DNA of 64,000 nt from the NCBI GenBank assembly GCA_004431415.1, contig QPMI01000071.1, positions 1-64,000 on the forward strand, read 5' to 3'. Origin of the DNA: Cyanophora paradoxa CCMP329 (Eukaryota; Plantae; Glaucophyta). The position numbers and the translations under genes were made by a program. Below are positions 24,001-48,859 of this stretch, one piece after another. The notes under the pieces were generated by a model. The model was not told the origin of the DNA. It made no database searches and saw only the letters and a list, made by a program, of their open reading frames with translations. Position 1 is the stretch's first letter, and the number at the start of each line of letters is the position of its first letter.

Positions 24001-24438
24001 ATGACAGCTATGACACCGATGATCCTTCTCTGCTCCGACGGCGTCCATATCCCGTGCCCCGCGGCGCTCGCCGCCGACGCCCGCATCCTCTCCCTCGCCT
24101 CGAGCTGCTCCGACGCCGACGTGGCCCCCGTCCCGCTCCCCTTCCGCTCCTCGCTCGTGTCGGCGGCCGGCGTCGCCCTCTCGCACCCCTCACCCGCGGC
24201 GGCCGCCCTCGCCCCCGGGGCCTACCCCGACCCGCGGGCCGCCGCCTCGGCTCTCGTCTTCCTCGCCGAGCTCGCGATCCTCGCCGATTACCTCGACGCC
24301 CGGCGGCTCGAGCTGGCGTGCGCGGCGCTTGCCAGCAGCGCGTCCGAGCTCGCCATCAAGTCCGCCTGGGCCAAGGCGAGCGTCCGTCCGCCCCCCGCCC
24401 CGCGGAAGCGCCCCTTTCAGGCTATCGGATCTTCGTAG
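24001..24438 (+). CDS. Skp1/BTB-POZ-like protein
   Basis: ILLCSDGVHIPC...ARIL...PVPLPF...LAELAILADYLDARRLELAC resembles the Skp1 pattern L.SSDG ... IPLP ... L.ELI.AANYL.I..L; C-terminal PRKRP is NLS-like. Confidence 0.7.
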   Translation: MTAMTPMILLCSDGVHIPCPAALAADARILSLASSCSDADVAPVPLPFRSSLVSAAGVALSHPSPAAAALAPGAYPDPRAAASALVFLAELAILADYLDARRLELACAALASSASELAIKSAWAKASVRPPPAPRKRPFQAIGSS

Positions 24439-26102: not shown

Positions 26103-26438
26103 TTAGAACTCGTCGGCGAAGCGCTTCGGCGGGCCGACGAGGCGGAGGGGGGCGCGGGGCTTGAAGCCGGCCTTGATGCATTCCGCCGCGTAGACTTCGT
26201 AGGTAAAGCTGTTCAGCGCGTCGCACACGAGGGCGTCGAGCTCCGGATCGCTGGGGAGGCCGCACGCCGTAATGTCCTCGGGCGTCCAGAGCTTGGCAGA
26301 GGGGCGCGTCTCGGACGTGGGCTTGATCTCGACGGCGGGGTCCGTGCTCGAGCTCGTCGGCGTCGCGACTGCATCGCGATCGGCGAGGGGCGTCGCGCGC
26401 GACGGCGGGCTCGCGTCGGTGTACACGTTGGCGTCCAT
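26103..26438 (-). CDS. Hypothetical 111-aa protein
   Basis: ACCATGG start context, normal composition (LWTPEDITACGLPSDPELDALVCDAL), AT-rich 3' tract. Confidence 0.55.
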   Translation of the reverse strand: MDANVYTDASPPSRATPLADRDAVATPTSSSTDPAVEIKPTSETRPSAKLWTPEDITACGLPSDPELDALVCDALNSFTYEVYAAECIKAGFKPRAPLRLVGPPKRFADEF

Positions 26439-26621
26439 GGTGGCTGGAATTCAACGATCGCGAGGAGATTTAGAGAAAGAGGAATGGTGGTCCGGGCCTT
26501 CCCTGCGGGGTCCCGCCCGCGCAGAATCCCTCGCGGATTCGAGCGAAAGCAGCAATTTCACTATCTTGTATTCAGACGAAACCAGGCTCGAGCGCACGGA
26601 TACACGAATCGAGGATGCAGC

Positions 26622-28554: not shown

Positions 28555-28681
28555 GCAGGCCCGGACGCGATCGCCGCTCGTCCACGAGTGGCCCCCGCGG
28601 GCCGCGGGACGCTCTCCTTTACGAATCGCAGCGGGCCGGCGGACAAGGCGGAGGCCCGAGGCGGGGAGCAAACGCAGGAGA

Positions 28682-29465
28682 GGTGCGCCTACCCCCGCCG
28701 CCCGTCACGGAGCCAAGTCAGTTCCCTCTAGGGCGGCGCCGGCGGCGGGCGAGGGACTTACCTCGCGCCGCCGGGGGTACGAAGGAAAGCGATGCGGGCC
28801 TACCCCCGCCGCCCGTCACGGAGCCGAGTCAGTTCCCTCTAGGGCGGCGCCGGCGGCGGGCGAAGAGCTCACCGCGCCGCCGGGGGTACGAAGGAAAGAG
28901 ACACGGGCCTACCCCCGCCGCCCGTCACGGAGCCGAGTCAGTTCCCTCTAGCGCGGCGCCGGCGGGGGGCGAAGAGCTCACCGCGCCGCCGGGGGAACGA
29001 AGGAAACAGACACGGGCCTACCCCCGCCGCCCGTCACGGAGCCGAGTCAGTTCCCTCTAGCGCGGCGCCGGCGGGGGGCGAAGAGCTCACCGCGCCGCCG
29101 GGGAACGAAGGAAACAGACACGGGCCTACCCCGCCGCCCGTCACGGAGCCGAGTCAGTTCCCTCTAGGGCGGCGCCGGCGGCGGGCGAAGAGCTTACCGC
29201 GCCGCCGGGGGTACGAAGGAAAGCGATGCGGGCCTACCCCTGCCGCCCGTCACGGAGCCGAGTCAGTTCCCTCTAGGAGGGCGCCGGCGTCGGGCGAGGG
29301 GCGTGTACCGCGCCGCGGGGGGTACGAAGGAAAGAGATGCTGGTGGAGGGAGAGGACCGGCCGCGTCCTAGGGAGAATCGCCGCCGCTCCGTGACGGCCG
29401 AGGGGGGTACGGACGGCGCCACGGCCGCCCCGCCCTAGACGAACGCGCCGCCGCTCCGTGACGGC
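28682..29465. repeat. Repeat module 3 (inverted relative to modules 1 and 2): 6 B units + 2 A-like units
   Basis: CCGTCACGGAGCCGAGTCAGTTCCCTCTAG on the + strand, the reverse complement of module 1 B units. Confidence 0.9.
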
Positions 29466-29679
29466 CTTCAAAGGCCGCCGCAGCAGACTTCGTGACGTGA
29501 GCGGCTCTCGGCGACCCATAGGGCGGCGGAAATACGACGCGTGCGCGTCCCGCGCGCGCCTTCCGTGCCCGCCGCGCGAGCCGTGCGGGCGGGACTCCGG
29601 GACTCGAGCGGCGCCCCGCGCCCTCTGCCCGATAAAAGGGCGGTACCCCAGCGCCGGTCACGTGCACGCATCCGCTCCC

Positions 29680-29898
29680 ATGTCGCAGGAGACGGCCCGG
29701 ACGCTCGCCCACCGCCTCGCCCGCGAGCTCCCCCGGCAAGCTCCGATCCTCGTCGCCGTCCCCGACCCCGCCTTTTTCTTGCACGCGATCCACCTTCTCG
29801 AGGCCAACACCAGAGACCTGTTCGCGGACTTTAAAATAAGCTACAAAGCGACTTTGGACGGGCGCTGGGGCGTACAGATGGTCCCGCTCGATTTTTAG
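29680..29898 (+). CDS. Hypothetical 72-aa protein, paralog of the 158-aa ORF N-terminus
   Basis: GATAAAAG box ~45 nt upstream; 13/61 gapless identities with the 158-aa ORF. Confidence 0.6.
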   Translation: MSQETARTLAHRLARELPRQAPILVAVPDPAFFLHAIHLLEANTRDLFADFKISYKATLDGRWGVQMVPLDF

Positions 29899-30219
29899 AT
29901 AGGAGGCGTGTGTTGATTGGAAACCGAGACCGCGCGCCCGGCGGAGGGGCCGACTGCACGAGTGGGGGTGAGCGCGGGTCCCGGGTGGCGTCGTGCGGGG
30001 GGCACGCACCGCCCGAACCGGGTTTCTATGGCGCCGCCGCGCGCGCGAAAGTCCCCCGCGCCCGCCGTTGCACTCGAAGCGAGTGTACCCCCGCTTCCGC
30101 TGCATGTAAAGCGAGTGTAAGTGACCGAAAGGTGGCCGCGAAGGCGCGCTTACAATGTGCGGGCAGGTCTCATCGAAGCAGGTGAGGAAGACGCGCGCCG
30201 CGAGAGGCGTACCCCTGCC

Positions 30220-30920
30220 GCCCCGCCCTAGACGGAATCGCCGCCGCTCCGTGACGGCCGAGGGGGGTACAGGCGGCGCCGCGTCCGCCCCGCCCTAGAC
30301 GAACGCGCCGCGGCTCCGTGACGGCCGAGGGGGGTACGGGCAGCGCCGCGGCCGCCCCGCCCTAGACGAACACGCCGCGGCTCCGTGACGGCCGAGGGGG
30401 TACGGGCGGCGCCGCAGCCGCCCCGCCCTAGACGAACACGCCGCGGCTCCGTGACGGCCGAGGGGGTACGGGCGGCGCCGCGGCCGCCCCGCCCTAGACG
30501 AACGCGCCGCGGCTCCGTGACGGCCGAGGGGGTACGGGTGGCGGAGGGCGGCGGAGGGCTCTGTCCTCTTTCCTTCGTACCCCTCGAGCTCGGTGGGCTC
30601 CTCCATCTGCGCGGGCGGGGATGAGAGTTGTACTTGTTATCTAATTGGCTTTTTATATATATCTTAGTGACAACTTCAGGGGATTTGGGCAGCACGAGGG
30701 GCTTACCGCGCCGCCGGGGTACGAAGGAAAGAGACACGGGCCTACCCCCGCCGCCCGTCACGGAGCCGAGTCAGTTCCCTCTAGGGCGGCGCCGGAGTCG
30801 GGCGAGGGGCGTACCGCGTTGCCGGGGGTACGAAGGAAAGAGACGCGAGCCTACCCCCGCCGCCCGTCACGGAGCCGAGTCAGTTCCCTCTAGGGCGGCG
30901 CCGGCGTCGGGCGAGGGGCT
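30220..30920. repeat. Repeat module 4 (inverted): 5 A units, TATA core, 2 B units
   Basis: CCCTAGAC at 30226, 30293, 30360, 30426, 30492; reverse-complement core TTGGCTTTTTATATATATCTTAGT at ~30645. Confidence 0.9.
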
Positions 30921-31204
30921 TACCTTGGGGCGATGCGGCCCGCATCCCTCTATCCCCATAAAGAGAAGCCGCGACTCGTCCCCCGCGGGGTGTGGATGGA
31001 CGAAGACCGGCGCCCCCCCACGCCGGCGCCGCTTTCATCGTACCCGCCGCCGCCGCCCGCCGGGGCGCTCAGACCCGTGCCCCTCGGGCTGCCGCCCGCC
31101 GCGAGCTTCTCGAAGCGGGCGAGGCGCGCGCTACCTCCGGCCGAGCCGCCTGCGGAACGGGGATCAGACGTGTAAAGAGGACCGGGGCGCGGGACTCGGT
31201 AGCA

Positions 31205-31303
31205 ATGGATTCCGAGGCACCTACCAAGGCCAAAGAGGACGCACACATCGCGGCGGGCGCGGCCGCAAACTCGGACCCCGAAGACGAGGCGACCAAGGGA
31301 CCT

Positions 31304-31334
<31 letters not shown>

Positions 31335-31732
31335 GTAAGGCGCGGCCGTTCCACGCGAGCTTCGAGGGACAGCACGTGGCGTACCTCCTGCACAACGGCC
31401 GCACGTGGTACACCGGCGAGACGGCGAACCTGACGCGGCGGTACAAGGAGCACACGCGCGGCACGATCCGCGGATCGTACACCAAAGGCAAAGGGCCCTG
31501 GCGCCTCGTGGCAGTTGCGGCGCCCTTTTCCAACCGCAGCGTCGCGCAAGGCTTCGAGACGACGCTCAAGGGCAAGTCGGGCGGCCAGGCGAAGCGCCTC
31601 GAGGCGATGCGCAAGCTGGCGACCGAGTACTCGGCGCCGGGCGCGCCGATCGCGGTGCACGTCAACCCGGATCTCTCGGATAGCGAAAGCGAGGGCTCTC
31701 CTGCGAGGGCAGACCGTAGGGGCGTCAGCTAG
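31205..31732 (+). CDS. GIY-YIG endonuclease, SLX1-like
   Basis: VAYLLHNGRTWYTGETANLTRRYKEHTRG...SYTKGKGPWRLV...FSNRSVAQGFE. Confidence 0.9.
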
Positions 31733-31977
31733 GCCGGGGATCGAGCTCGGCCCGTCCACGGGCTCGCACGCATGGTAGAGCGATCTGATGCTGCACGTAC
31801 CTCGCGATCAACTCGAGCACCTGATCCGCGTTTGCTCGCCTCGCGGGAGGGACCGTGGGCTCCTCGGTGTGCAAGCACGGCGCGCTAAAGTAGGACGCGT
31901 ACCGGGGTACCCCCGAACGCGCTTCGTGCGGCGATCCGAGGCGCTCTGTGCCTCGAAATCAACCAAAGCGCATTCCC

Positions 31978-32687
31978 TTAGGGCGTCAAAGGCTGTCCTT
32001 TCCGCTCAATCGCCTCGGCGCCCAAGTACGAGGGCTCGAAGCGGCGGAACGTGCACCCTCGAGTGCGCGGGTGTTCCTCGTGCGCCATGTTCGAGCTGTT
32101 TCGCGCATTCATGGCCCCGAGGCGAGACGCCGGCCGCGCCCGCGGCGATGCCGAAAGGGATGTCGGCCCCCGCGGCGACCGCGGCGGCGGCGACGACGGC
32201 GGGGCTCCTTCCCGAGCTCTCGTGCCTCTCCTGAGCCCGCCGCCCTCCGCCTTTGGCACCCGCCCGCTCTCTGATCGACTCAACATAGTCCGCCGGCCGC
32301 GGTACGTGAGCACCGCCCGTCCGCGCTGGATCGCCCGCACAAACCTCACGAGCTTGCCGCGTCGCCCTCGCAGGTCGTGATGCCAGCCTACCGCGGGCAC
32401 CCAAGGGCGACGTACGCGTCGACGGCGACCGCGCGCGGCCATCTCGCACGAGCGCCCGCTCCAGAGCTTGCGGTCGGCCAGCAGGCGGCGCACATCGTCC
32501 AGCGCGTTCTCGGAGAGCGCCGTCGCGTCGGCCGCGGTGCGCAGAACATCTTTAAGCCGCGCTGAGGTTCGTCCCGTTGCCCGCGCTTCGATGGCGATCC
32601 GGCGTCGATCGCCGCTTCACCGCGCGCCCCGCAGGCATCGCAGACGGCGCCCTCGCACGACCAAAGGATCATCCCTCCGGGGCACAT
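31978..32687 (-). CDS. Possible hypothetical protein (frameshifted), N-terminal Cys pairs
   Basis: Two overlapping ORFs (CEGAVCDAC...; VGWHHDLRG...LVRFVRAIQRG); no recognisable family. Confidence 0.2.
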
Positions 32688-32699
32688 CGGCGGCGGCTG

Positions 32700-33447
32700 C
32701 GATTCGTACCCCCGTGCGTACCGTACCCCGCGCAGGAGGTGAGCTCCTCGCCCAACGCATGCGCCGCCCTAGAGAAAACTGACGCGGGTCCGTGACAGTG
32801 CGCGGCGGGGGTAGGCCCGTGTCTCGTTCCTTTGTACCCCCGAGGAACGGTAAGCTTCTTCATGTCGCCTCAATACCTTGTGGTTGTCACGATCGCGAGA
32901 TGACGAGTACAACTCCCATCCCCGCCCGCGCAGATGGAGGAGCCCACCGAGCTCGAGGGGTACGAAGGAAAGAGGACGGAGCCCACCGCCGCCCTCCGCC
33001 ACCCGTACCCCCCTCGGCCGTCACGGAGCGGCGGCGCCTCCGTCTAGGGCGGGGCGGCCGCGGCGCCGCGCGTACCCCCCTCGGCCGTCACGGAGCGGCG
33101 GCGCGTTCGTCTAGGGCGGGGCGGCCGCGGCGCCGCCCGTACCCCCCTCGGCCGTCACGGAGCCGCGGCGTGTTCGTCTAGGGCGGGGCGGCTGCGGCGC
33201 CGCCCGTACCCCCCTCGGCCGTCATGGAGCCGCGGCGTGTTCGTCTAGGGCGGGGCGGCCGCGGCGCCGCGCGTACCCCTCTCGGCCGTCACGGAGCGGC
33301 GTCGATTCCGTCTAGGGCGGGGCGGCCGCGGCGCCGCGCGTACCCCCCTCGGCCGTCACGGAGCGGCGGCGCCTCCGTCTAGGGCGGGGCGGCCGCGGCG
33401 CCGCCCGTACCCCCCTCGGCCGTCACGGAGCGGCGGCGCTTCCGTCT
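32700..33447. repeat. Repeat module 5: 1 B unit, core lacking the TATA, 7 A units
   Basis: TCTAGGGC recurs at ~67-bp period from 33043 to 33378, plus a terminal variant. Confidence 0.9.
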
Positions 33448-33696
33448 TTATGTTATTTTAATCCTTCTATTTCTAGACGAGTACTCCGTGTATAACTACG
33501 TGTGCCGTAGTACCGTAGGGCTTCCCGTGATCACAGTGCACACGCGCGCGCGGCCGCGATGCGGCCCGTGGAGGCTTCGAATTCGCATGCGGCGGTAGCT
33601 GAGGCAAACCACGAGCCCTCCGTGACAAGTCTCCTTTCGCGCGTGCACTTCAAAATTCGGTAAAACCATCGATATCAAATAATGAACTATCTATAA

Positions 33697-36600
33697 CTAG
33701 ATCTGCATCGCGTCGGCTTCGGTTCCGGGGGCGGGAATGCAATCCGGAGCGGGGGGCGCGGTGACCGCTTCGAATTCGGGGATGGGAGCCGGCGCCGGTG
33801 CCGGCGCGGGCGGCGGGGCGGGGCCATCGAGGCCCCCGCCCAACCAGTCGATCTCCAGGTAAATACTCGGGAAAAAGTGCCCGTGAAGGCGCTTCTCCTT
33901 TCCGTCGATTTTTACGCGCTGCTGGGATCCCTTGTACGTGTTGGAGCGGAGGACGCGAGGGGCCCGCGGCCCGAGTCCCTCCTCGAGCGCGTCCAAGAGT
34001 TCCGTCGCCAGCGGGCTGTGGTCCTTGCCGAGGGCGCGCCCGTCGGCGAGGACGATGTGCTTGTTCGCGTCGGCCATCGCGGAAAAGCTCACCCACGCGC
34101 CGCCGACCCGCACGTGCTCGACCTTGCATGCCTCGGCGTGCTCTCCGCGCGCGCAGCCCGTCTCGGGCCCGCAGAGGGGCCGGATTTCGACTTCTTGCTC
34201 CATCATCTCCCAGAAACCGCCATTCTTGCGATCGGGCCCGGCGATGCACGCCTCGACCGCGCGCATCATTGAAACGACGCAGGCGATGCGGTGCTCCTCG
34301 CGCCGGTCGATGCCCGTCGGCGTGTAGCGCGGATCTCCCTGCAAACCGCGGCCCGCGATCTCGGCGATCGACGGCGTGTCCAACGGCGCACCGATTCGAC
34401 GGAGAAAGTCCTCCGGAATGGTGAGAGCGGCCGCCAGTTTGGACTTGGACACGCACTCCAGGAACCGACGGGCGCCCTCGGCCGTCGAGTAGTCGAGGGC
34501 GGCGTACTGGGGCACGTATTCGCTGCCCTCGGCCGGGCCCGGAATGGCCGTCCAGTAGAGGAGATCTTTGATTTCGTCTTCCGTATCGGGTGCCCAGAGA
34601 GGGTGCGCGATCTGGCGCAGCTGCTGTGGGACGAGGGCGGAAGGATGAAGGTCGGGGACTTTTCCGCCGCCCCTCATGCATCGCAAGGCCGCCGCAACGG
34701 CCGAATTGGCCGAGAGGTACGCGCGCACGTCGGACTCGTACTGCTCGCTCGTGTCGGGGCTGCCGTTGCGAGTCTGGGGCTTCAGGGCGACGGCGAGGCG
34801 GGCGGCGTCGGCCACGTTTCCGGGCGGGTTGATGCGAAACTCGACAGGGGAGCCGTCGGGGGCCTTGCCCCGCGCGATACACGGGCTCGCCACCTTTACG
34901 AGTTTTCCGCCGAGTGATTCGATCGCGTAGGCGACGGCGCTCCGGTACACACGGTACAGGCAGGAATCCAGGCGCCGAGAGAGAGTGGCGCGGTCCTCTG
35001 CGGTCCGAGCCTTTTTCGACGGCCTCTCTTCGCCTTCGGACCCTTTTCCACCGTCTTCGTCGGTGTCGGAAGCCGCCATCTTGATCGCTTCAGATTCGGC
35101 ATCTTCGAGGGCCTCCTCCTCGGGGCGGCGCTCGGAGGGGAGCCTTTTAGAACCGCTGGCGAGAGAGGCCTCGAACTCCTCGACAACGGCTTTGATCGCG
35201 CCGTCCGAGGCTCCCGTGTCGCCGCGAAGGGCGAGCGCCCTCGCCAGAAGAGGGCCTTCGACGATCTTTAGGTCGACGAGGGCGGGGCTCGCGGCGAGGC
35301 GGGCGAGTCCCGCCGCCTTGACATCGTCGATCGAACCGAAGGCGATGGTCGGCAGGTGAAAATTGAAGGGGTGGAGCGGATGGAGCGGGTGCAACTCGGG
35401 GACGCCGAGCGTTGCCAAGATCATCTCCGTGCTCTTCTTCACCCTCGTGAAGGGATTGCAGGCGGACCCGGACGAGTTCGAAGCGACGTTATCGATGTCG
35501 CACTTGGCCTCGCGCGCCGCGTACGTGGGCTCGTCGACCTGGGTGAGGTAGATGCCGAGGCGCGCGCGCCTACGCATCGACTCGATTGTCTTGCTGGCCA
35601 TAAAGTCCTCCGGAGTTGTCGCGTAGAGCGGCTGCCCAAGCGTCATCGAGACCTGAGCCTTGTTTAAAACCGCCTGGATGGCCGACTCGTACTCCTCGGT
35701 CGCATCATCCTGCGATATGCCGAACTCTTCGCCGAGAGAATTACCGCTCCCATTTCGATCGTCGCCGGACTTGGAGACGAAACGCACAAAATCCCCGTGG
35801 AAGCGGCAGTCGAAGGAGATGCCGGGGGTGGTAGCCAACAAATTCGGGGCGTACTCTTGAGATTTGTAGACGGCGTCCCCGGTCCGTCCCACCTCGGCCA
35901 CCAAGGATTTGAATTCTTTCGCATCCAACGACACCCGTTCGAGGAGGTCCCCGTGGTTCGCGATGTAGACGCGCTGCGCGCCGAGATGGCACATCAACTT
36001 CTCCACGAGCATCCGATCGGGCCAGGTGTGATGCGCATTCCGCTCGGCGGTCACGTTTGCGTACACCATGGCGAGCAGGCGCTCCTCCTCAACATATTCG
36101 CGCCATCGCCGTTCGAAAGACTCGTCGTCCTCGTTGCGCTCGCGCTGAAAAAGGTCGGAGCGACCCTTTTCCAACTCGGCCAGGCGTCCCGCCCAGGCGG
36201 ACGAAAAGATGGCGTTCGGGTCCACGGGAAGGGTGGCCTCCTTGTCCGCGTCCGAGAAACGCTGGCAGTACATGTTGAGACGTACGTGGTTCGCCGAAGG
36301 AAGCTCTTCCAGATGCCGCACGCGGTTGTTCGCCTGGACCTCGCGATCCGTCCCTCCAGTCCGCCCAGCGTCCGTCATGAGCCTGAACTTGGGCCGGAAC
36401 ACGTGCCCGTCGAAGCCGACTTGAACGACGTAGTTGGCCATGATCACATCCTTCGTATTCCATTTCTCGGCGTCGTTCAGGTCGCGTCGCCGCTCGGCGG
36501 GGCAGTCGGCGAAGCCCAAAAGGACCCGCTTTTCGGTAAATTGCGGGTTCAACGCGGCCATAACGGCGAAGTTCCGGAACATGTGCTGCTTGTCGGCGTG

Positions 36601-39600
36601 CAGGTTTGACGTTCGTATCACCGGTCGTCCCTTTGCGCTCTTTGTAGCCGGTTTCGGAAGGCATGCCGCGGAGAAGAAGGGGCTCCAGGCGATGGGCACG
36701 ACAACGTGGACCTCTTCGCGGTAGCGAGCGAGGGACTCGGGGCTCGAGAGTTGGAAGACGACCATCGTCTCGCCGGGCGGTACCTGGGACGCGAGAACTT
36801 CGAGGTGCCAAGGCTGCAAATCCTGGCACATCGCGATGACCGACTTGCTCCGTCGCATCGCACGGAGGAGTCTCTTCCACGATTTCTTCCGGATGCCGTT
36901 GAACGTCTCGGAGCTCGAAAAGCGACCGAGCAAGCAGTTAAGCTCGTCCGCAATGAGAATCCCGCGCCGCGAGTCGATGTTCTTGACGTTTTCAGCCTTG
37001 TGAAAGCTCTCCGCGCACACGACGATGCGATCGTGCATCAATCGCTTTTTCTTGTCCCGTCTGCTCTTCTCCTTGGCATTTCCGGCACCGTCCCGGTAAC
37101 CTCGGAAGCGCTGCGCGTGAAGGGGGCTGTTCTCGTCAACCTCGCCTTGCGCGCGTCCGTTTGCGATGTACGTAGCGTAGCGAGCCGTGGGCTCGGAGGC
37201 CGTGGCCGTCGATAAGAGTTGCGATTCGAGATAGTTGAGAAGTCCGTTCGGGTTGTCGGCGAGCACGGCGCGCGTCTTCTGCGCGCCGCATCCGGCTGCA
37301 ATCGCGATGGTGTGGGGAAGGGCCACCTTGGGGTCCGTTGAGGAGCGCAGCCGGGTCACCATCACGCCGTCGCCGAGGTGGGGAAGATCGTCGATCATGA
37401 TGACCTTGTAATTGCACGACGGGTGTAGATGCCGCGGTCTTGTCGCCTCCGGGATGAGGGGCTGGTCGATCGGGTGGCGAAAGATCCTGGGCGAGGCGGG
37501 CGCCACTGCGGGCGACGCGAAGGAGAGGTCGGGACGCGCGTCGGCCGAGTGACTGAGCATTGGCTCCAGAACGTTGGTTCGAATGGCATCCGAGACGGCC
37601 ATCAGCTGGTCTTTGACCGGGTTTTGAAAGAAAATGCTCCGCTTGAGCTCCATGCCACACGCTCCGGCCATGAAGCGGGCCGGACCTGACCCGACTTGGC
37701 GACGGAGATAAAGTGCGTCGTCGAACTTTGTAAACGCGGCCCGCAACGCGGCCGCGTCCACGCGAGAGAGGGACGCGTTGCACGTCTCCGTCTGATCTTG
37801 ACCGTTCAAGCTCTTGTAGCGGCACTTTACCCAGACTTTTCCGTCGAGAAGGCTGACGCAGGCCATGTGGTTCGTCTCGTCCTTCGAGCCGTAGTAGACG
37901 GCAATGACGAGGCGGTTTACCTTGGCCTCGAGCACCTCCCAGTACGGATGGATGACGTCGCGTTCCTCGGCGGGCGTTGCGCCGACGGCGTCGAGGCTCC
38001 GAGCGAGCTTGGGAAGCGGCGGAAGGTCGGACTCGTACACGCACGAGTGGAGCATGGCGTTGAGGGTTTCGAAGAAATTCTTCTCGAGCTCCACAATCTT
38101 TTCGCCCGGACCCCCGTATGCCGTCGTGGTGAAGTGGATCGCGTGGTTCAGCTCGCACTGAGAGCTCATACAACGGACGCTCGCCCGAAACACGCCAGGC
38201 ATGCCGTTTCCGCAAACGGTGACGAGGGCGCGGTTGGTCTTATGGTGGAGACCGTACGGACACTCGCCCTGCAACGCGTTGAGGGGATTCGGAACGGTCA
38301 CAAAGTTGAAGTAATTGATGGTTCGGCCGCTGTTGCACGTCTTGGCGTTGCGGCTCGTAAACGTAAGCGCCCGATGGCCGTCCGGGAAGAGCTTTTCGCA
38401 CACGCGAAACGCGACATCGAATGCCTCTTTGCACTCCGACGAGCCGCCGCCGACGTCGCTCCCAGCAATTGTAATCGACGGCACCGGTAGCGCGCTCGGT
38501 GGCTGGCCGTGGGAAGACTCGCCGACGCTCGGGATGGGATGGATTCGCTCGTAGTTCGCTGCGATATAGTCGTGAAGGCGACGGAGGTGCCCCGAGAACG
38601 CCTCGATCGCCCGTGGGTCGGGCGCCTCGCGAGGGATGGGAACATCGAGGAAATCTTTGTTGGGGTCGAGCGGTGGGTAGATCATCGCACAGTACGAGTT
38701 GCTCTTCGGGTTTCGCGCGTCCGGAAGGCGTAGACCTTGGCCGCGGCTCCAAACTCCCTCGTCGACATGACGCGAGATGCAGGCGATCTTCTCCTCGGAG
38801 AGCACCTTGAAAACCCGCGAGAACCGCGCCGAGATCTCGTTGCGAAGGCTAGACGCGCCCTCCGGATTGTCCAGACGAAGGCAAAAATGCTCAAAGTCGT
38901 CGTGAAAGACATGGGCCCCGCGGAAGCCCAGGACGACGAAGGGCTTACGGTCGGGACCGAAAGTCTTTGCGATCTCGACGGCGCACTCGACCACACGCTC
39001 CAGCGCGGCGCTACCGCGGATGTACTCGGCGTACGTGCGGCATTTGTCAAAGTGCTCCTTAAGGGACTTGAGCGCCGCGCCGTCGCCCATCCGGTGCGCG
39101 CTGCTCGACGATTTGAGAAGCTTCTCGCGTCCAGCGCACGCCTCGCTCAGGTCGGCGTCCACATCCACATAGGCGCGGCTGTACACGACGGTTTCGCGAC
39201 CGCCCGACGCCGCGATCACCTTGTAGTCGAAGGTGGACTTGAGGAACTTGCCGCGAAAATCATCTGCCTCCAGACGACGAGCGGAATGGAAGGCGAATTT
39301 TGGGCCAATGTACGGATTGTGGGGATTGTTTCCGACGGGCTTGACGAAGGCCTCGATTGTCGGCGGGGGAGAGGGCCAGGGCGGCTCGGCGCGCTCGGAG
39401 CCGGCGGCCTCTGGTGCGGCGAGCTCGAGCATGCGCGTGCCCGCGACGCACGCGTCCGCCATCTCGACATCGACGTCGCGATCGGCCGTCGAGATCGCCT
39501 TGGCCCCCGCCGCGGCCTCGCGATCGTGGTTCGCCGGCAACACCTCCATGCTCTTCGTTTGCGATATCGATATCGATTGTGCGCCGATTTCAGCGCCCCG

Positions 39601-39669
39601 TTCGCCTTTTCCAGCAGCAGGCGAGGGCGGAAGAATCGCACGAATTCGTGCGTCCGTCTCGACACTCAT
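33697..39669 (-). CDS. AEP (PrimPol/herpes-NCLDV type) primase + Zn finger + UL9/origin-binding-type SF2 helicase fusion, ~1990 aa, intronless
   Basis: AEP motifs: AYVDVDADL, LGFRGAHVF, VDEGVWSRGQGLRLP. Zn finger: CPYGLHHKTN...RCMSSQC. Helicase motifs: IAAGCGAQKT, VVCAESFHK, ILIADELNCLLGRF, SVIAMCQDL, WNTKDVIMANYVVQVGFD, QANNRVRHL. Start placed at MSVETD, ~70 nt downstream of a TATATAA box. Confidence 0.85.
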   Translation of the reverse strand: MSVETDARIRAILPPSPAAGKGERGAEIGAQSISISQTKSMEVLPANHDREAAAGAKAISTADRDVDVEMADACVAGTRMLELAAPEAAGSERAEPPWPSPPPTIEAFVKPVGNNPHNPYIGPKFAFHSARRLEADDFRGKFLKSTFDYKVIAASGGRETVVYSRAYVDVDADLSEACAGREKLLKSSSSAHRMGDGAALKSLKEHFDKCRTYAEYIRGSAALERVVECAVEIAKTFGPDRKPFVVLGFRGAHVFHDDFEHFCLRLDNPEGASSLRNEISARFSRVFKVLSEEKIACISRHVDEGVWSRGQGLRLPDARNPKSNSYCAMIYPPLDPNKDFLDVPIPREAPDPRAIEAFSGHLRRLHDYIAANYERIHPIPSVGESSHGQPPSALPVPSITIAGSDVGGGSSECKEAFDVAFRVCEKLFPDGHRALTFTSRNAKTCNSGRTINYFNFVTVPNPLNALQGECPYGLHHKTNRALVTVCGNGMPGVFRASVRCMSSQCELNHAIHFTTTAYGGPGEKIVELEKNFFETLNAMLHSCVYESDLPPLPKLARSLDAVGATPAEERDVIHPYWEVLEAKVNRLVIAVYYGSKDETNHMACVSLLDGKVWVKCRYKSLNGQDQTETCNASLSRVDAAALRAAFTKFDDALYLRRQVGSGPARFMAGACGMELKRSIFFQNPVKDQLMAVSDAIRTNVLEPMLSHSADARPDLSFASPAVAPASPRIFRHPIDQPLIPEATRPRHLHPSCNYKVIMIDDLPHLGDGVMVTRLRSSTDPKVALPHTIAIAAGCGAQKTRAVLADNPNGLLNYLESQLLSTATASEPTARYATYIANGRAQGEVDENSPLHAQRFRGYRDGAGNAKEKSRRDKKKRLMHDRIVVCAESFHKAENVKNIDSRRGILIADELNCLLGRFSSSETFNGIRKKSWKRLLRAMRRSKSVIAMCQDLQPWHLEVLASQVPPGETMVVFQLSSPESLARYREEVHVVVPIAWSPFFSAACLPKPATKSAKGRPVIRTSNLHADKQHMFRNFAVMAALNPQFTEKRVLLGFADCPAERRRDLNDAEKWNTKDVIMANYVVQVGFDGHVFRPKFRLMTDAGRTGGTDREVQANNRVRHLEELPSANHVRLNMYCQRFSDADKEATLPVDPNAIFSSAWAGRLAELEKGRSDLFQRERNEDDESFERRWREYVEEERLLAMVYANVTAERNAHHTWPDRMLVEKLMCHLGAQRVYIANHGDLLERVSLDAKEFKSLVAEVGRTGDAVYKSQEYAPNLLATTPGISFDCRFHGDFVRFVSKSGDDRNGSGNSLGEEFGISQDDATEEYESAIQAVLNKAQVSMTLGQPLYATTPEDFMASKTIESMRRRARLGIYLTQVDEPTYAAREAKCDIDNVASNSSGSACNPFTRVKKSTEMILATLGVPELHPLHPLHPFNFHLPTIAFGSIDDVKAAGLARLAASPALVDLKIVEGPLLARALALRGDTGASDGAIKAVVEEFEASLASGSKRLPSERRPEEEALEDAESEAIKMAASDTDEDGGKGSEGEERPSKKARTAEDRATLSRRLDSCLYRVYRSAVAYAIESLGGKLVKVASPCIARGKAPDGSPVEFRINPPGNVADAARLAVALKPQTRNGSPDTSEQYESDVRAYLSANSAVAAALRCMRGGGKVPDLHPSALVPQQLRQIAHPLWAPDTEDEIKDLLYWTAIPGPAEGSEYVPQYAALDYSTAEGARRFLECVSKSKLAAALTIPEDFLRRIGAPLDTPSIAEIAGRGLQGDPRYTPTGIDRREEHRIACVVSMMRAVEACIAGPDRKNGGFWEMMEQEVEIRPLCGPETGCARGEHAEACKVEHVRVGGAWVSFSAMADANKHIVLADGRALGKDHSPLATELLDALEEGLGPRAPRVLRSNTYKGSQQRVKIDGKEKRLHGHFFPSIYLEIDWLGGGLDGPAPPPAPAPAPAPIPEFEAVTAPPAPDCIPAPGTEADAMQI

Positions 39670-39724
39670 GTCCGAGGGCCGGGTACCGTCGACGTCCGGG
39701 GCCCGGACCTTCACGGCACGCCCC

Positions 39725-39782
39725 GGGCCCGTCTCCTTATATATGTGCCGGCCCCTCCCGGCACGTGCACGGCCCCACGGCC
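39725..39782. promoter_or_regulatory. Compact divergent promoter with TTATATAT box (copy 1 at ~5530-5586)
   Basis: CCTTATATATGTG is the only AT-rich patch in the ~113 nt between the helicase ATG (-, 39669) and the Cys-rich ORF ATG (+, 39783). Confidence 0.5.
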
Positions 39783-40223
39783 ATGACCATGGCCATGGCC
39801 CCTCCTCGAGCTCCCGAGCCCCGCGTCGGGGATCGCGTCCCCCGGCCCCTCCCCGCCCCCGCCCGGACCTGCCGGGCCTGCGGCGGAGCCGCTCCTCTCG
39901 TCCGCCGCAGTGCACTCTGCTGCGCCTGCCGAGCGCGGTACGAGCGCGAGCGCAGGAGGGCCGTGCGCGTGACCGCGGGGGGCCCCTGCCCCGCGGCCAG
40001 CGACGTCGACCCCCGCGTCGGACGCGTGCGCCGCATCTGCAAGCGATCCGACGGGCTCGTCGTCGCCTACTGCGGCCGCTGCCGAATCGTCTTACCCCTC
40101 CAGTCCTTCCAGATGGCGACTGAGGGCAGGTTTTACAAGCGGTGCCCAACGTGTCGGCGCGAGGACGATCGAGCTAGAGCGGCGAGGCTGAGGGGGCGCG
40201 CCGTCTTGGAGAAAATTGCATAA
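39783..40223 (+). CDS. Small Cys-rich zinc-ribbon protein (~146 aa)
   Basis: Paired cysteines CRAC, CCAC, CGRC, CPTC; ATG downstream of the TATA; stop followed by an AT-rich TAAATAGA. Confidence 0.55.
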   Translation: MTMAMAPPRAPEPRVGDRVPRPLPAPARTCRACGGAAPLVRRSALCCACRARYERERRRAVRVTAGGPCPAASDVDPRVGRVRRICKRSDGLVVAYCGRCRIVLPLQSFQMATEGRFYKRCPTCRREDDRARAARLRGRAVLEKIA

Positions 40224-40265
40224 ATAGATGCGAAACGCGGGAGCATTCGAGGTACCCACTGGGCC

Positions 40266-40936
40266 ATGACGCTCGAGCTCGTCCCGTACGACCCCAAGTG
40301 GGGCGCTGCCCGCTGCTGGCTCGCCGTCGAGCCCGAAGAGGATTCGAGCGTGCGGTACGAGGCGGTTGAGCAGCCGCTCGATGGGGACCCGGCGAGGGAT
40401 TTTCGCGCACGTCGTCAGCACGAACAGTTTGCGACGCTTTGCTTTGTGGCGTGGCGGTGCTTTCGCAATCGTTTCCGCGAGCCTCCTCGGGGAATCTGCG
40501 TTCCGGACGAGTGTCCCGTCTGTCTGGACCGCCTCTTGCGGCCCGTCGCCCTCTCCTGCGGACACGTAATGGATTTCCACTGCCTCGTACGCGTGCATCA
40601 CGCCACGTGCCCCTCTGCCGCGCCGCGGTCGAGCCAGACGGGATCTACGCGCTGACCGACGAGCACCGTCGCCGGGCGGCCTCGGAGGAGGGTTACGTCC
40701 AGCGGCTTCGCGAGGCCGCCTCGCCCGACGGCGATCTCGGCTGGATGGCCGATCGGATCCGGCGAAGGCTCGCGGACCCGTCTTGGATGGCGTGGGACTC
40801 GGCCGAAGAGCGCGAGAGGAAGGCGCGCCTGCAATTGTACAGAAACTGCGGCGCGTCGAGGGCTGCGGCCGGTATCGATGCTCCATTTTCGCAGAGAGCC
40901 TCGGCCGTGGCGGTCGGCGGCGCATGCGCAGGCTGA
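40266..40936 (+). CDS. RING-finger protein, copy 2 (1-nt deletion in a C-run at ~40610)
   Basis: Duplicate of 6066-6737. Confidence 0.8.
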
Positions 40937-42223
40937 ACGTCGGACGCGTATACGTGCATGTACGCGTACGTATAGCGCGTATACGGCCGCAACCATAGCC
41001 AGTCGAGCTAACGTACGCGAAGTACTCAGCCGAGTCCCAGTACGAGTAAACTTGTAAATGAAATGAATCAAAATCGTCCTCGTCGAGCTCGAGCTCGAGA
41101 GAGTGTGTCGCGGTCGCGGCCGATAGCGATAGCACAACGCGAGCACGTCCGCGCGCGGCGTGGGCGTCGGCCCTCGGCAGGCCGGCGCCCCACGCACAGG
41201 CCTAAGGTCGGCGCGCGCGCGACCATGGGCGGCGCGCCCTCGAGCTCGAGCTCGAACGCGAGCTGGCGGCGCCTGGCGCTCGCGGCGGGCGCGGCGGAGC
41301 GCGGACGCGCGCGCAATTCGTGTCTCAGCGCGGGACAGCGCCGGCGGATGGCTATAGGCTATAGCTAGCGCTGGCGCCGCCGGGCCGGCCGCGTCGGCGC
41401 GGGGCCCGGGGGCTCGAGCTCGGCGCCTCGCCCCGGACTTCGAGCGCCCGCGGCCGGCGCAGCACTAGTACGTATACTGGGATCCGGACCGCCGGCGCCG
41501 GACCGGCTGCAGGGGCCGGGCCGCGGCCGCCGGGCTCGGCGTCGCGCGCGGCGACATCGATCTCAGGAGTCCCGCGCCCGTTGCCGGGCCACTCCGAGCC
41601 CCTAGGCAAAGCGGCCTCGCCTCCGTGACAGATCTAGCCATAGACGGCCGCGGCCCGCGCCGCGGGCCGCGCGCGGGCCGGCGGGCGGCGGGCGGAGGCG
41701 ATTGCGACCCTAGATGGTTCGCCCTCGGCTCCGTGACAGTGACTCAGTGACTCTACCGGTACGGCGGTACCGTCTCTACGGCGGAGTCTACGCCGACTCG
41801 ACGTGCGACGTCGACGTCGACTCTCTCGCCGAGTCCCGGCCCCGGGTCCGGGTCCGACGTCGACGCCGACTCGACGTCGACGGTCGCCGAGTAACATCAC
41901 TGTACAGTGTACATATATACTATGATACTCAGGCTATGATATATATGTACACCATAGTCGAGCTCGAGCGGCCGTCGGACCGCGAGTACTACGGTACGAG
42001 TTCCGAAGTTCGAATTCGAAGAACTGATCATGATGCGCATGCGCATTCAATGATTCAATGATATCGATCATGATCATGATCATGATTGCGCATGCGCCGT
42101 GCACATGTACTAGGTACGTCATCATCGGCGTCATGATGATATGGATGCCATGATGCGCATCACGCGCGCGACGGGTACCGGGCGTACTACCGGCCCGGCG
42201 GTGGTCCAGCTAGTGCAGTCGAC

Positions 42224-42356
42224 GTCGCGTTGAAGTTCACGCGACGGGTGGTCCGGTGCAGTCGCGTTGAAGTTCACGCGACGGGTGGTGCTGTGCAGTC
42301 GCGTTGAAGTTCACGCGACGGGTGGTCCGGTGCAGTCGCGTTGAAGTTCACGCGAC
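42224..42356. repeat. 4 x 37-bp palindromic tandem repeat, copy 2
   Basis: Duplicate of 8028-8160. Confidence 0.9.
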
Positions 42357-44289
42357 GGTCCAGGGCAAAACGAAATAATTTCGATCATGAAAATAATTCT
42401 ATTTTCCATGAATGACCCCCCGAGCCGGCGCGCGAGGGGCCCGAGGGCTCAGGTCTTTTATATGTTTTGAGCCCATGGGACACGCGCGAGGGGCTGCGCG
42501 AGGGGTCTTTTATATCATTTAGAATTAGATGTCGGCCAAAAATAGACCCGGCCGGGGGCCGGGACCGTAAAATATTTTTAATTTAATTGCCACGTATAAA
42601 AACGTACCGGAATTGCCGAGTCGATAAATTGCCGAGGCCAGCTAGACAATTAAATTGAGACAATTGCCAAGTTCTTCTATGGCGTCCTAAGAGAATCCCT
42701 ACCCCAAACAACATTGCCGTGTCGTTAAATTGCCGAATTCGGCGCGCGTATACGTCTCGGCAATTATTAATTACTAAGTTAATTAATATTTGCGGCAAGT
42801 TGCCGGCAACTACGCGGCCTACGCCGGCCGTAATGCGGCCGCGGTACTACCGTACGCGTAGTACGTATACAGCCCGGCCGCGGCCCGCCGTATACGTACT
42901 ACGTAGTAGTACGGTAGTACTACGTATACGCGGCGACCGCGGCGCCAGGCGCCGCCAGCTATAGCTATTAGCTACTAGCCTAGTAGGCTATAGCCTACAG
43001 CTGCGCTTCTGCGCTACAGCTTCACCCGGGCGGTCGGAGCTGTACGTATACTACTACGGTATACGTAACCGTCGCGACCGCCCGGTGCGGCGCGCGCGCC
43101 GGCCCCAGTCGATCCCAGACTCCGGCCAGGCTCCCGGCCGGGCCGGCCCTCGAACGGACCGTCGGACGCAGTGCGCGCCCGATTTGCCGGCGGGTAGAAT
43201 CTGGCAGTTCGCCTACCATTAGCTCGGGTCGAACGAGCGTCGATCCGAGCACCATGCATATATATATGCATATGCATGTCGATGGCGACGTCGACGGCCC
43301 ATCAAAGTGCGCATGCGTGGCGGGCCGAAGAACCGATCTGGACCCTCTGAGATGATGTTAGATCACTTTTCAAAGTTTCGCGCAGGACCCCGCCGACGGC
43401 ATTTTGATGGCTCACTCGACCGAGCCTCCCGGCCCGTCGGAGGCATGCTCTAATGCATCAAACGTTGATTACTGATCGCTCTCTTATTCGCCATCGAGGA
43501 GGACGATGATGGCTCGCGCGCCCGGCGGCCGCTCGGGCGCTCTAGATCTAGATCTGCGGCCAAGACGTTCCCCTCCGTGCCGCAGTGCGCTTTAGCGAGC
43601 GCGTGCACGCACTGTTGTCGTTCTGTAACGCATACCGCGCGGGTTGAACTCAAGATGGAGTTCTCGCCCGCACGGGGGGCTATGCGGCGTGCACAACGCG
43701 GAGACGCGCTTGCGGCCGTCCGCCGCCGCGGGCCCTCGCCCCGCCGCGCCCCGTTCCTCCCGGAGTCCAGCCCGCGCTGCCCGGCCACCGTCCGCCGCCC
43801 GCGGCCGCGGGCCCTCGCCCCGCCGCGCCCCGTTCCTCTAGCCCGCACTGCGGCCATCCGCCGCCGCGGGCCCTCGCCCCGCCGGCGCGCCGCGTCCCGT
43901 CCCTCCATCCCTCCCCCCTCCGGATCCGTACCTAGTCTCGCCCCCTGCGGCTTCCATTGTTCGCCACATTGCGACGGGAAGATAGGATTTCTAATTATAA
44001 AATGGAACAACGTTCTATAGCTATAGCTAGCTAGCTCCGAGGCTCTAGGGCTCTCTAGATATAGGAGTATGTAGTTCGCTTATCAATCGGGGCATGCGCA
44101 CCCCCTGCCTTTCCCTTTCCCCGACCCCAGAATCTGACTTTCTCTCTTCTTTTGCAATCAGAAAACCTCTTTACATACACGTTAACCAATCTGTAATAAG
44201 AAGAACAAGAACGTAATAAAAGTACAAGGTTTTTAATTGTCCGAAGAGTACTAGACTAGTTAAATTAAAGGGAAAGATAGAACGAAAGC

Positions 44290-47200
44290 CTAAATCATAC
44301 CATCAAATTGTCGCCGATCGGCCCGCTTGGTGCCTGGCGGGAGGAGTGTGATTCGAGCACGAGATGGACAGGAGGGCGGGTTCCGAACCGCGGGCGCATC
44401 CTCGTCGACCTCGTCGGCCTTGCGCTTGCGGCTGCTGGGGGGCGAGGTGTCGGGCGGCGTTGCTCCATCTTCTGCGCGAGGATCAAGGTTGGGGCGCGAG
44501 GCACGGGTCGGCACTGCATACCTTTCGGAGAGCCGACGGGCGTGGCGACCGGTACGGGGGCTTGGCGGGCGCCCCTGCCTCGGCCGCGTGCGGCTCCGCG
44601 CGCGCGCCCCCGGCCACGAGGTACTCTCCTCGCGGGAGCGGAGCTTTGGCGACCTCTACGCTTTTGCGGGGCTGTTGCCGGGTGCCCCACGGTCGCCGCC
44701 GATGCCGCGGGCGCAGACGCGGGCGCCGATGCAGGCGCCGCGGCCCCCGCCGCGTCCTCGGAACGCCTCCCTGCGCGCTTGCCCGTGCGAAATGCTTCGC
44801 ATTGCGCGAGGGACCGGTCCAGCGGCTCCTTCGGCTCCCCTCGGCGGACGGCCTGTTTCACGCTCTCGTAGTCGATGTCCTTTTTCCTGTCGTCCTGATT
44901 AAGCAAGAACGGGGCACGCGATGGGGACGGACCTGATTTCGTGGAGATGAACCCCGAAAACTTCCTCGAAGACCTGGTACGTGAAGCCCGCTGACATTGC
45001 GTCCGACGCGAGCTCGTCGAGGTTCTCGTCGGCGAAGCACTCCTCACGGAAGAGACGCTTGACCGACGGGGGGAGTCCCTTCTCCTGCCGCTTCTCGTTC
45101 TTCACATTGGCCGCCTCCTCCTGCTTGAACTTCATGATGGACTTGATGATCTCGCGGCGGAGTTTGGCGTCGGGTGGGGGCATGAAGATGCTGCGAACAG
45201 GGATTAAACGCGAACGAATACGCACAGGACGGCGTACTGCTTCCGGAAGCGACGAAAAAACTTGTCGTCCATGTTGAGCGGATAGTTGGTCGCGGCGACT
45301 ATAATCGGACCACGGCCGGGGTCGCCTGTGCGAACTCGCCGGTGCTCGACGTCGTTGTAGAGTTTGTCCACCGCCGTCGCAAACTAACACTCTGTGAGTC
45401 GCGGGAAACGTGCACGAGCACTCGAGCGTACCGTGTTCAGGACCTTCTGCTGCAGTTCGTCCGTCGACGGCTTGGAAGCTGGGACGGTCGTATCCACCTC
45501 GCTGGACCAGACGTTATTACGAGAGCGCCATATTTATCACAGGAATCGAGGGTGAACGCACTCTAACATAAAAACGACGTCCTGCATGTCGTGGGCGATG
45601 TTGAAGAACGCCTCGACGACCTTCTCGGATTGCCCGTACTGCTGCAAGATCAGGGATGGAGCGGGTGCGCCGGCGAACGGGCGAGCACGTATTCGTTGAT
45701 CTGGGACGGCTTGTACTCGAGGAAGCTGTACCCGATGCGGCGAGCGAGCTCGCGCGCGAACTGTGACTTGCCTGTGCCCTGCGCGACGCAAATCAGCGAG
45801 CGCGAAGCGGGCCCCCGCGCGGAATCACGGACCGGCGGGCCGAACAAGAGGACTCCAGTGGGCGAGAGGCGCTGAAGGGACGGCCACTCGTCCGCCGCCT
45901 CGTCTCCCTCGTCGGGGTCCAACCGGTTTGGACCGAGGGCCTGCTCGAGGTCTTCCATGGTCCCCTCCGGAACGACTGGCGACCGAGTCGGATAAGATTC
46001 ATCGAGGCGCGGGCGACACGCTCGCACCATAGGGATGCATGCTCGCGAGGCGCTCGTTGTCGATGAACGCCTTTTTGATGTTCTCCGCGGCCTCCGCCCT
46101 GAGCCCACACACCGCCTTGCCCCACGCCGTTTCGAAGTCCAACTTTCTGTCGGAGAACGTGAGAACGGATCGCCCCCCGCCGCGAGGTGCGGGCAAGAGG
46201 CACCGATCCATGTCGGGGGTCGGTCTTGGGCCATTGTGGTGCAGGTAGAGGGGGTTGTTCGGGTGGTAGATTGGGATCTCGGGGTCGAGGAGGCATGACA
46301 GAAGGGCGTCGTCGCCACGCAAGCCTTCCTCCGCCACGTGTGCTTCTAGCGACCTTCGGACGGTCTTGATGAGCTCATCTCCGCGCTCCGCCTTCTGCCG
46401 CCTACTCTCCTCGCTCTTCGACGCTCGACCGCCCTTGGGCGGGGGCGGGGGCGCGGCCGCCGCGCCGGAGCCGTCGGCGCCGCCCCCCGCCCCCCGGCGC
46501 GCGTGCTCCTCCACATCGAGGACCGCCTGCCCAAGAGAGAAGTTGGGCGCGTTGAGCTTCTTCACGTGCGTTCGCGTCGTCTTCGGGCCCATCATGCGCA
46601 GACAGGGAAACGCCCGGAGCGCCGCGCCGATCTTGCGAATCCGCAGAAGCTGCGCATGCGAGCGAGGCGTCAGGGTGGCGCCCGCGCCGACGAGCGGGAT
46701 CGGGGCGGACCACATCGACCAAATTCTTCTTCCCCTTTTCGATGTCGGTGTGGTTGACCGTCTTGTCGCGAAAGTCTTGGACCGTCCCCGTCGTTTCGAG
46801 GGAGAGCATCTTCGCCCAGTCGAGCTTGCCGCCCGGATCTCGATCGAAATCCGCTATCTTCTCCTCGACGAGGCCTCGAATCCGTTCGCTCAGGGTCTTG
46901 CTGCTCAACGACTCGACCGCTCGCCCCGCCTTCTTCTGCGCATCCTCCTCCTCTATCCGCCGACCCTCGTACTCGTAGAAAAGGACGACATACTGCGACG
47001 AAAGAGCTCGTCGGCGGGCAGAGTGGGAATGGGATTGGGAGGCGTTGTACCTGGCAAACCATCATAAAGGTCGCGGTGTTCTCCAGCTCGCCTGCCGTGA
47101 CGATGGAAGCGGCCGCCGACATGAACCGATCCAGCTCCCTGTACTTGCTCGGATCGTTCTTGATTTGCGAGATGAGATCCACAGGTGCGGAGGCGGCGAG

Positions 47201-48430: not shown

Positions 48431-48859
48431 GACACCCCCGGCCGTGCGTTACTGCTCCTCCTCGGCCCTCGAAAGCTTAAGATGACTCGCCATCCAACTT
48501 TGACACATACAGAAGCTCGCTCGAAACGTTCCTCGAAACCGGTGCAGTTACTGTGCCATGGGGCCTCCTTCCCGGAGTCCCCGCGGCCGTCACGGTGCCG
48601 CCCTGAATCCTTTCAGGGGCTCGACGCGGTCCGCCCGCCGCCACTCTTGACGCGCTCGCGCAGACGCCGATCGGGCTCGCGGCGAGGACGACGCCAAGCC
48701 CTGCGACGCGGTTCGGCTCGTCGCTCCTCGCGCGACCTGCGCCGGGTCGAAGCGACAGCTTATAATGCTTAGATACATGCCGCCGGGGCAGGCGGAGCTC
48801 TCAATGCGCACCTTGGGCGTCGTACGTCCGCTCCCCAACGCCCGTTTCGTACAGACTCT

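Follow-up and report, generated by a model that had tools for sequence, protein, structure and literature searches.

Primase-helicase gene and the repeated unit

The window analysed here, 64,000 nucleotides at positions 1 to 64,000 of contig QPMI01000071.1 from the glaucophyte alga Cyanophora paradoxa CCMP329, carries on its minus strand a long open reading frame (ORF) predicted to encode a UL9-like helicase of superfamily 2 (SF2) fused to a likely primase of the herpesvirus/giant-virus type, an archaeo-eukaryotic primase (AEP). This primase-helicase lies in a 34-kb unit that is repeated in tandem and probably serves as replication protein for the element that the unit represents. The features concerned are:

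33697..39669, minus: primase-helicase ORF, 1,990 aa, with AEP-like domain, zinc finger, UL9-like SF2 helicase and a 750-aa tail without family
39737..39743, minus: TATATAA box read from the sequence, ~70 nt 5' of the primase-helicase ATG
38730..39171, minus: AEP motifs I-III read from the sequence (I at 39151-39171; II at 38911-38928; III from 38766)
38155..38262, minus: zinc-finger-like motif (C-H-C-C) that follows the AEP domain, read from the sequence
35920..37401, minus: UL9-like SF2 helicase core, from profiles, alignment and model fold
37273-37293, 36940-36954 and 36316-36336, minus: Walker A (GAQKT), Walker B and motif VI, respectively, read from the sequence
24683..59065: one full repeat unit of 34,383 bp, from self-alignment, with contig breaks at 24682/24683 and 59065/59066
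1..24682: the tandem copy before it, incomplete in the window, from self-alignment

The frame is open for 1,990 codons from 39669 to 33697, and AEP, zinc-finger and SF2 motifs follow each other on this single chain, as a first-pass annotation made from the DNA letters had stated. The ORF is gap-free in short-read contigs of two runs: the X2 contig (33410-39998) shows 25 substitutions and no gaps, and the two gaps listed for the X1 contig (33411-40676) both lie outside the ORF. Of 25 short-read ORF variants in all, 13 were listed, and 11/13 of these are synonymous, taken as a sign of selection. The runs listed as carrying the ORF include no RNA run, and run X21, guessed to be RNA, leaves parts of the ORF uncovered; both observations were counted neither way.

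Whole-protein Pfam and PDB sequence searches returned no match for the primase-helicase. A PHROGs search with 12 pieces was empty. Its own near-identical records were all that word-seeded searching and a full phmmer run over 1.84 billion representatives recovered for the primase-helicase, three of the four members of this cluster being named EukProt records of Cyanophora paradoxa. At the level of sequence the protein is an orphan; its primase-helicase architecture is a known one, of which it would be a very distant representative.

UL9-like helicase part

The helicase part shows Walker A (GCGAQKT) at residue 793, Walker B (IADEL) at 906 and motif VI (QANNRVR) at 1112. In the Atlas, residues 740-1420 adjoin the Herpes_ori_bp, ResIII and CyRepA1 clusters (0.96-0.98), and for residues 757-1090 PF02399 was the sole Pfam family, with an E-value of 0.031 that does not pass the cut-off. 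Profiles were built from helicase relatives drawn from cyanobacterial genomes and viral contigs. The 20-row UL9-like profile was matched with 93.6% in hhalign (E 2e-7) and scored 30.5 bits, compared with at most 4.4 in 500 shuffles, and the 43-row profile covered residues 875-1221 with 34.9 bits versus at most 3.3 for shuffles. A significant profile match thus extends over both RecA-like domains, as expected of the PF02399 group. An alignment-based model (predicted local distance difference test, pLDDT, 73.9; predicted template modelling score, pTM, 0.81) had the origin-binding protein (OBP) of herpes simplex virus 1 (HSV-1) as its top PDB fold match (E 2.6e-13), and giant-virus and herpesvirus origin-binding proteins led the BFVD fold search; the fold match is partly circular, since UL9-like sequences had supplied the alignment behind the model.

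Based on profiles and model, assignment of this part to the UL9-like SF2 helicases can be regarded as confirmed beyond chance, and the ordered UL9-type motifs claimed in the first-pass annotation are borne out by both a profile and a fold. With the helicase as direct query, viral contigs, plasmids and phages gave no significant match. In a quick tree, the helicase, on the longest branch (3.67), grouped with herpes UL9, virophage-like sequences and a single sequence of metagenomic origin (SH-aLRT 92, not starred), and was tentatively placed outside the cyanobacterial group. Profiles built exclusively from CyRepA1 or from virophage-like sequences gave no score for the primase-helicase and were set aside, as was a Walker A motif scan, whose matches were dominated by Lon proteases.

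Unwinding by the helicase part is likely but not certain. In the 45-row alignment, K798, T799, D908, E909, G1085, Q1112, R1116 and R1118 are all kept and present in 44/44 relatives, but Walker A has Q797 where 44/44 relatives have glycine, and motif III has C948 where 42/44 have aspartate. Loss of the canonical Walker A and of the motif III aspartate lowers the certainty of activity, not that of homology; the autonomous unwinding proposed earlier is supported by the eight invariant residues and called into question by the two deviations. The latter, together with the long branch, would also fit a weak or dead ATPase that binds DNA and gives the primase a scaffold while host helicases unwind, a reading that is independent of what the element is. 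Since the invariant residues are retained and the short-read ORF variants are mostly synonymous, this scaffold function is considered unlikely, albeit the most credible of the alternatives weighed in this study. The primase-helicase offers a natural Walker A variant within the UL9 family.

AEP-like primase part and zinc finger

All three AEP motifs claimed in the first-pass annotation were found in the expected order: motif I (DxD; YVDVDAD) at residue 167, motif II (H; GFRGAH) at 248 and motif III (hD; VDEGVW..G..LRLP) at 302. The annotated C-H-C-C zinc finger was likewise recovered as C-x4-H...C-x4-C at residues 470-505; its pattern is presumably of the UL52/PrimPol type, and it has no Pfam match. 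A language-model match in the Atlas to the AEP_C962R and Herpes_UL52 clusters (0.92-0.94; 165 shared features) was taken as a lead of moderate weight. Furthermore, a DNA pattern of motif III searched against viral contigs gave 23 matches, 20 of which are herpesvirus UL52-type ORFs of more than 1,000 aa; both of the retrieved ORFs that were tested (2/2) matched PF03121.

The 125-row D5-type profile gave no score for the primase-helicase. The UL52 profile reached 1.5 bits and a mixed profile 6.4 bits compared with 5.8 for shuffles, motif III alone being aligned, and a single-sequence fold of residues 100-556 had a pLDDT of 35 and was uninformative in the fold search. Membership in the AEP clade of herpesviruses and nucleocytoplasmic large DNA viruses (NCLDV) is therefore graded as likely, not proven, because motifs, Atlas and UL52 retrieval agree, yet the profiles stayed near shuffle level and the fold failed.

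C-terminal tail

The tail (residues 1240-1990) was searched in pieces against Pfam at E-values up to 10 and up to 1 and matched no family, KilA-N included. The peptides quoted for a KilA-N-like tail in the first-pass annotation are present (residues 1852 and 1928), and this assignment could not be maintained; a very remote form of the domain is possible. Moreover, the tail did not score above shuffles with a 4-row profile of the herpes UL9 C-terminus or with three other C-terminal profiles, all of them thin, and the proposed autonomous origin recognition gains no support from these searches of the 750-aa tail. The remark that the unit has no other polymerase agrees with the 44 + 28 pieces scanned, among which none was found. 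Hence, of the proposed single-chain machine the AEP, zinc-finger and UL9-type SF2 calls hold, the KilA-N call fails and the architecture was already known; its description as a novel autonomous machine was overstated.

Related fusions in other contigs

Metagenome contig L322 (6,992 bp) contains an ORF of at least 1,742 aa (3-5279, minus) in which a DNA polymerase of family B (PF00136, E 1e-18) is combined with an AEP-like segment, a motif resembling a zinc finger and a helicase of the UL9-like type (PF02399, E 3e-27), making it a candidate single-chain replisome; no description of such a polymerase-AEP-UL9 fusion was found in a literature search. Its divergent neighbour (5414-6547, plus) resembles a tyrosine recombinase or protelomerase by eye and has no Pfam match. 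Viral contigs L257, L258 and L260-L263 (10-33 kb, virophage-size) encode a primase-like N-terminus fused to a UL9-like helicase, and a gene resembling a virophage cysteine protease lies beside the L258 fusion. L153, L162, L169 and L199 carry a UL9-like helicase with an N-terminal Toprim primase instead of an AEP (Toprim_3 in 3/4); therefore, UL9-like helicases pair with unrelated primases. A stand-alone AEP-like gene with UL52-type motif III and no Pfam match was seen on a 37-kb metagenome contig (L321:4260-6182), near a terminase-like ATPase fragment recognised by eye.

The 34-kb tandem unit

Self-alignment matched 1-24688 to 34177-59071 at 98.9%. The copies differ by 199 gap events, mostly single-base, and by 84 substitutions, many of which are alignment artefacts beside gaps; in the assembly as it stands, single-base deletions break the reading frame of the primase-helicase in the preceding copy. 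At 24682 and 59065 the contigs of three runs stop, and X2 and X5 each have a following contig that starts exactly at 24683, where a second, unseen left flank may join. Contig depths for flank / right end / left segment / ORF were:

X1: 5.0 / 12.4 / 14.9 / 18.8
X2: 16.5 / 47.2 / 52.7-77.8 / 66.1
X5: 60.3 / 172 / 200 / 189-216

Unit contigs thus roughly reach 2.5-4.7 times the flank depth in these three runs, which fits approximately 3-4 unit copies, contig depth not being true copy number. The segment 24683-27600 belongs to the unit, because it is as deep as the rest. Single-base gaps are typical of long-read error and could point to one locus assembled twice. Such an artefact is very improbable, given that an X1 short-read contig crosses the head-to-tail junction from 24653, that the unit has about threefold flank depth in all three runs, and that two further Cyanophora paradoxa records of the protein exist, one intact with ~12 differences and one a fragment, neither being an exact window copy (by eye).

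Rfam and tRNA scans of the unit were empty; therefore, it is not rDNA. No terminal repeats or target duplication were seen at its readable ends. Between the left end at 24683-24690 (CCTTTTGG) and the first bases of the right flank at 59066-59073 (GCTTTTCG), 6/8 positions agree, a likeness that might reflect a recombinase target. CpG is not depleted in the unit (24683-59065; observed/expected 1.30; flank 1.10), and methylation of CpG in repeats has been reported for this species in the part of PMC12344493 at hand. The text of PMC6704402 makes no mention of virus, histone, CenH3, tandem or ploidy.

Other genes and repeat arrays of the unit

Besides the primase-helicase, the following features were recognised:

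53312..56189, minus: tyrosine-recombinase-like gene with GT-AG intron(s), from motifs R(PSR)..K..QxxR..LLGH..Y
31205..31729, plus: GIY-YIG nuclease (Pfam PF01541, E 4.9e-8)
40254..40936, plus: RING-finger gene (Pfam zf-RING_2, E 7.6e-7), divergent from the primase-helicase
44300..48136, minus: AAA+ ATPase gene, spliced, with approximate bounds; Pfam AAA matches the other copy at E 1.2e-4
26628..28690, minus: multi-exon gene without family; a contig of X21 skips 28167-28230
24975..25840, minus: histone H3 variant with about five exons, 3' end approximate; the core is CenH3-like, the tail H3-like
28687..33447: repeats of 107-109 bp and 66-67 bp, arrayed between genes (28687-29337, 30217-30924, 32997-33447)
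48969..53088: both repeats arrayed again (48969-50358, 51929-53088)

The recombinase-like gene has a GT-AG intron in both copies and no Pfam match. Taking R-K-HxxR-H/W-Y as the catalytic set of tyrosine recombinases, it shows R, K, R, H and Y, with Q in place of the HxxR histidine; by tblastn, 3/5 weak and non-significant matches (E 3-7) are annotated as integrases. A Pfam scan of 44 frames found GIY-YIG, RING, AAA and a weak histone match. The RING-finger gene is also open in the other copy (6054-6734), and contigs of run X24, guessed to be RNA, skip three CT..AC stretches in the AAA gene. The core shared by the 67- and 107-bp repeats occurs 24 times in the unit and not once in 4.9 kb of flank.

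Among the unit frames, no gene for a capsid, an A32-type ATPase, an HUH nuclease or a DNA polymerase could be recognised, capsid-specific profiles not being used. Likewise, neither Pfam nor inspection by eye recognised a Nucleocytoviricota-type major capsid protein, VLTF2/3 or HUH endonuclease in the unit, and no Pfam-recognisable housekeeping gene is present besides the odd H3.

Within the AAA gene (45785-47194), short-read contigs of lower depth depart from the window sequence at clustered sites, which suggests that a variant unit or a diverged paralogue exists elsewhere in the genome. Distinct from the arrays, a 37-bp tandem repeat (3.6 copies; 42224-42358 and 8028-8162) occupies a low-GC, apparently non-coding part. 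At the right end of the unit, a small plus-strand gene (24010-24384 and 58400-58820) is BTB/Skp1-like by eye, with no Pfam support; together with the RING-finger gene it may be ubiquitin-pathway cargo. Two small plus-strand ORFs (29644-29859 and 50696-51151), each right after a repeat array, are possible paralogues by eye.

Histone H3 variant

The core exon of the H3 variant gave ten PDB matches at E up to 1, and all of them (10/10) are Cse4/Cnp1 (best 0.018). CenH3 proteins are marked by loss of Q68, F84 and T107 of H3, and corresponding changes are present in the exon translations (PFLRL, IRWS, EDGNL). The core contains a tryptophan (W), and in the alignment loop 1 is nine residues longer than that of Cse4; a longer, divergent loop 1 is named as a CenH3 trait in the portion of PMC2995078 available. 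The tail matches canonical H3 (E 1.5e-9), and the H3-unlike tail of CenH3 proteins was thus not found. A literature search for CenpA and kinetochore in Cyanophora paradoxa found nothing.

Conceivably, the unit might be a self-priming, integrating nuclear plasmid with its own segregation kit, in which the centromere-type H3 would bind the repeat arrays. Excised circles would then replicate from their own origin and ride the host spindle. This extension is doubtful, more so than any of the competing accounts of the unit weighed in the next section, and a role of the repeats as origins or histone sites is speculation.

Nature of the element

Replicase, recombinase-like gene and GIY-YIG nuclease lie together between sharp ends, along with repeats specific to the unit, as is typical of mobile elements. 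The best explanation, given slightly better than even chances, is a capsid-less, virus-derived integrative element that is self-priming and borrows host polymerases. The tyrosine-recombinase-like enzyme would excise and integrate a circle, the helicase would open an origin, perhaps inside the unit-specific 67/107-bp arrays, AEP and zinc finger would lay primers, and host polymerases would carry out bulk synthesis. Tandem copies could arise from re-integration or unequal crossing-over. AEP replicases paired with tyrosine recombinases have been described for polisuviruses, and use of host polymerases was inferred for AEP-UL9 relatives lacking a polymerase, as far as the accessible parts of the two sources go (bioRxiv 10.64898/2026.10.13.758929 and PMC11253617, respectively).

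Several results weigh against this integrative element. They comprise the Q797 and C948 deviations and the partly circular fold match of the helicase, the near-shuffle profiles and failed fold of the primase part, and the substituted histidine and non-significant matches of the recombinase-like gene. Furthermore, no empty site, circle or dispersed insertion of the unit was seen, in X2 and X5 the right-flank contig has no predecessor other than the unit, and searches of representative proteins, viral contigs, plasmids and phages found no relative of the unit elsewhere. Finally, introns in the H3, AAA and other genes give the unit a host-like look.

These introns, including those of the recombinase-like gene, would also fit a host segmental duplication, that is, a tandem-amplified block with a host CenH3/H3 variant, AAA and RING genes and a few old captured viral genes, in which the primase-helicase serves the host or rides as a passenger. 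The missing terminal repeats and target duplication at the readable ends, the finding of the ORF in 20/20 runs of the source organism and the giant-virus endogenous regions reported for C. paradoxa (PMC12344493, partial text) agree with such an origin. It is nevertheless rated unlikely, being slightly less credible than the scaffold function of the helicase, since replicase, recombinase-like gene and GIY-YIG nuclease in one sharply bounded unit form a combination typical of mobile elements and no Pfam-recognisable gene besides the odd H3 has a housekeeping role.

A defective provirus or satellite, i.e., a helper-dependent Polinton-like virus (PLV), virophage or mriyavirus-like genome whose capsid module was lost or is too diverged, would account for the 34-kb size and for the likeness to UL9-like helicases with N-terminal primase-like parts in virophage-size contigs. 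Recombinase and GIY-YIG genes are common in PLVs. AEP-UL9 chains also occur in mriyaviruses (PMC11253617, consulted portion). However, no capsid-type or A32-type ATPase segment was recognised among the unit frames, the ATPase present is of the AAA+ type and no HUH endonuclease was recognised, so that this origin appears somewhat less probable still than a host duplication.

The capsid-less integrative element remains the preferred reading, and it makes the unit of more interest than the primase-helicase protein alone. Little has been charted of eukaryotic capsid-less DNA elements that supply a replication protein and an integrase themselves, and literature searches turned up no such element carrying a CenH3-like histone. 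With a cultured axenic alga as host, circles, copy number, expression and histone localisation are directly testable.

Comparison with known systems

The AEP-UL9 architecture is not new, because single chains with intact AEP and UL9-like SF2 helicase have already been published for mriyaviruses, mimivirus R8, pF1055L of African swine fever virus (ASFV) and Ostreid herpesvirus 1 (PMC11253617, in the sections at hand). SmDNAV also has AEP and UL9-like SF2 helicase (available part of bioRxiv 10.64898/2026.08.29.747986), and UL9-like helicases occur on bacterial AEPs (PMC5862659, excerpt). The Cyanophora protein shares domain order, intact AEP motifs and a UL9-like helicase with R8, pF1055L, Ostreid herpesvirus 1, the mriyavirus SF2_hel and SmDNAV, and the unit resembles mriyaviruses in genome size and in its apparent lack of a DNA polymerase. 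In contrast to all of these, the Cyanophora protein is longer (1,990 aa), has an unassigned tail and a deviant Walker A, and is without detectable sequence relative among the representatives searched. Moreover, unlike the viral AEP-UL9 proteins, it is encoded by a unit that is integrated and in which no capsid, packaging ATPase or HUH endonuclease can be recognised.

HSV-1 OBP as top solved-structure match and a UL52-like motif III connect the protein to herpesvirus UL9 and UL52, whereas in orthoherpesviruses these are two separate proteins, and the C-terminal DNA-binding part of UL9 was undetected in the Cyanophora protein. With Polinton-like viruses and virophages the unit has in common a likely AEP-helicase with a putative tyrosine recombinase, a GIY-YIG nuclease, a size within 15-40 kb and integration in protist genomes; it differs in that no capsid module was found and in being intron-rich, with internal repeat arrays and an H3 variant. 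CyRepA1, a cyanobacterial plasmid replicase composed of a DUF3854 primase and a UL9-like helicase, is likewise a single-chain primase-helicase (plasmid Rep) with a homologous helicase. It belongs to another primase family, however, the CyRepA1-only profile gave no score, and the tree places the Cyanophora helicase outside the cyanobacterial group (long branch, tentative).

The H3 variant resembles CenH3/CENP-A in its long loop 1, W-containing core and Cse4/Cnp1 matches, and differs by its canonical-H3-like tail and by being multicopy inside a repeated unit. Cryptons and Starships, which are tyrosine-recombinase DNA transposons, are capsid-less, have an intron-containing recombinase and carry cargo genes, like the unit with its putative recombinase; they are not known to encode a primase-helicase. 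Taken together, the element can be seen as a variant on integrating replicons already known, its histone being unusual.

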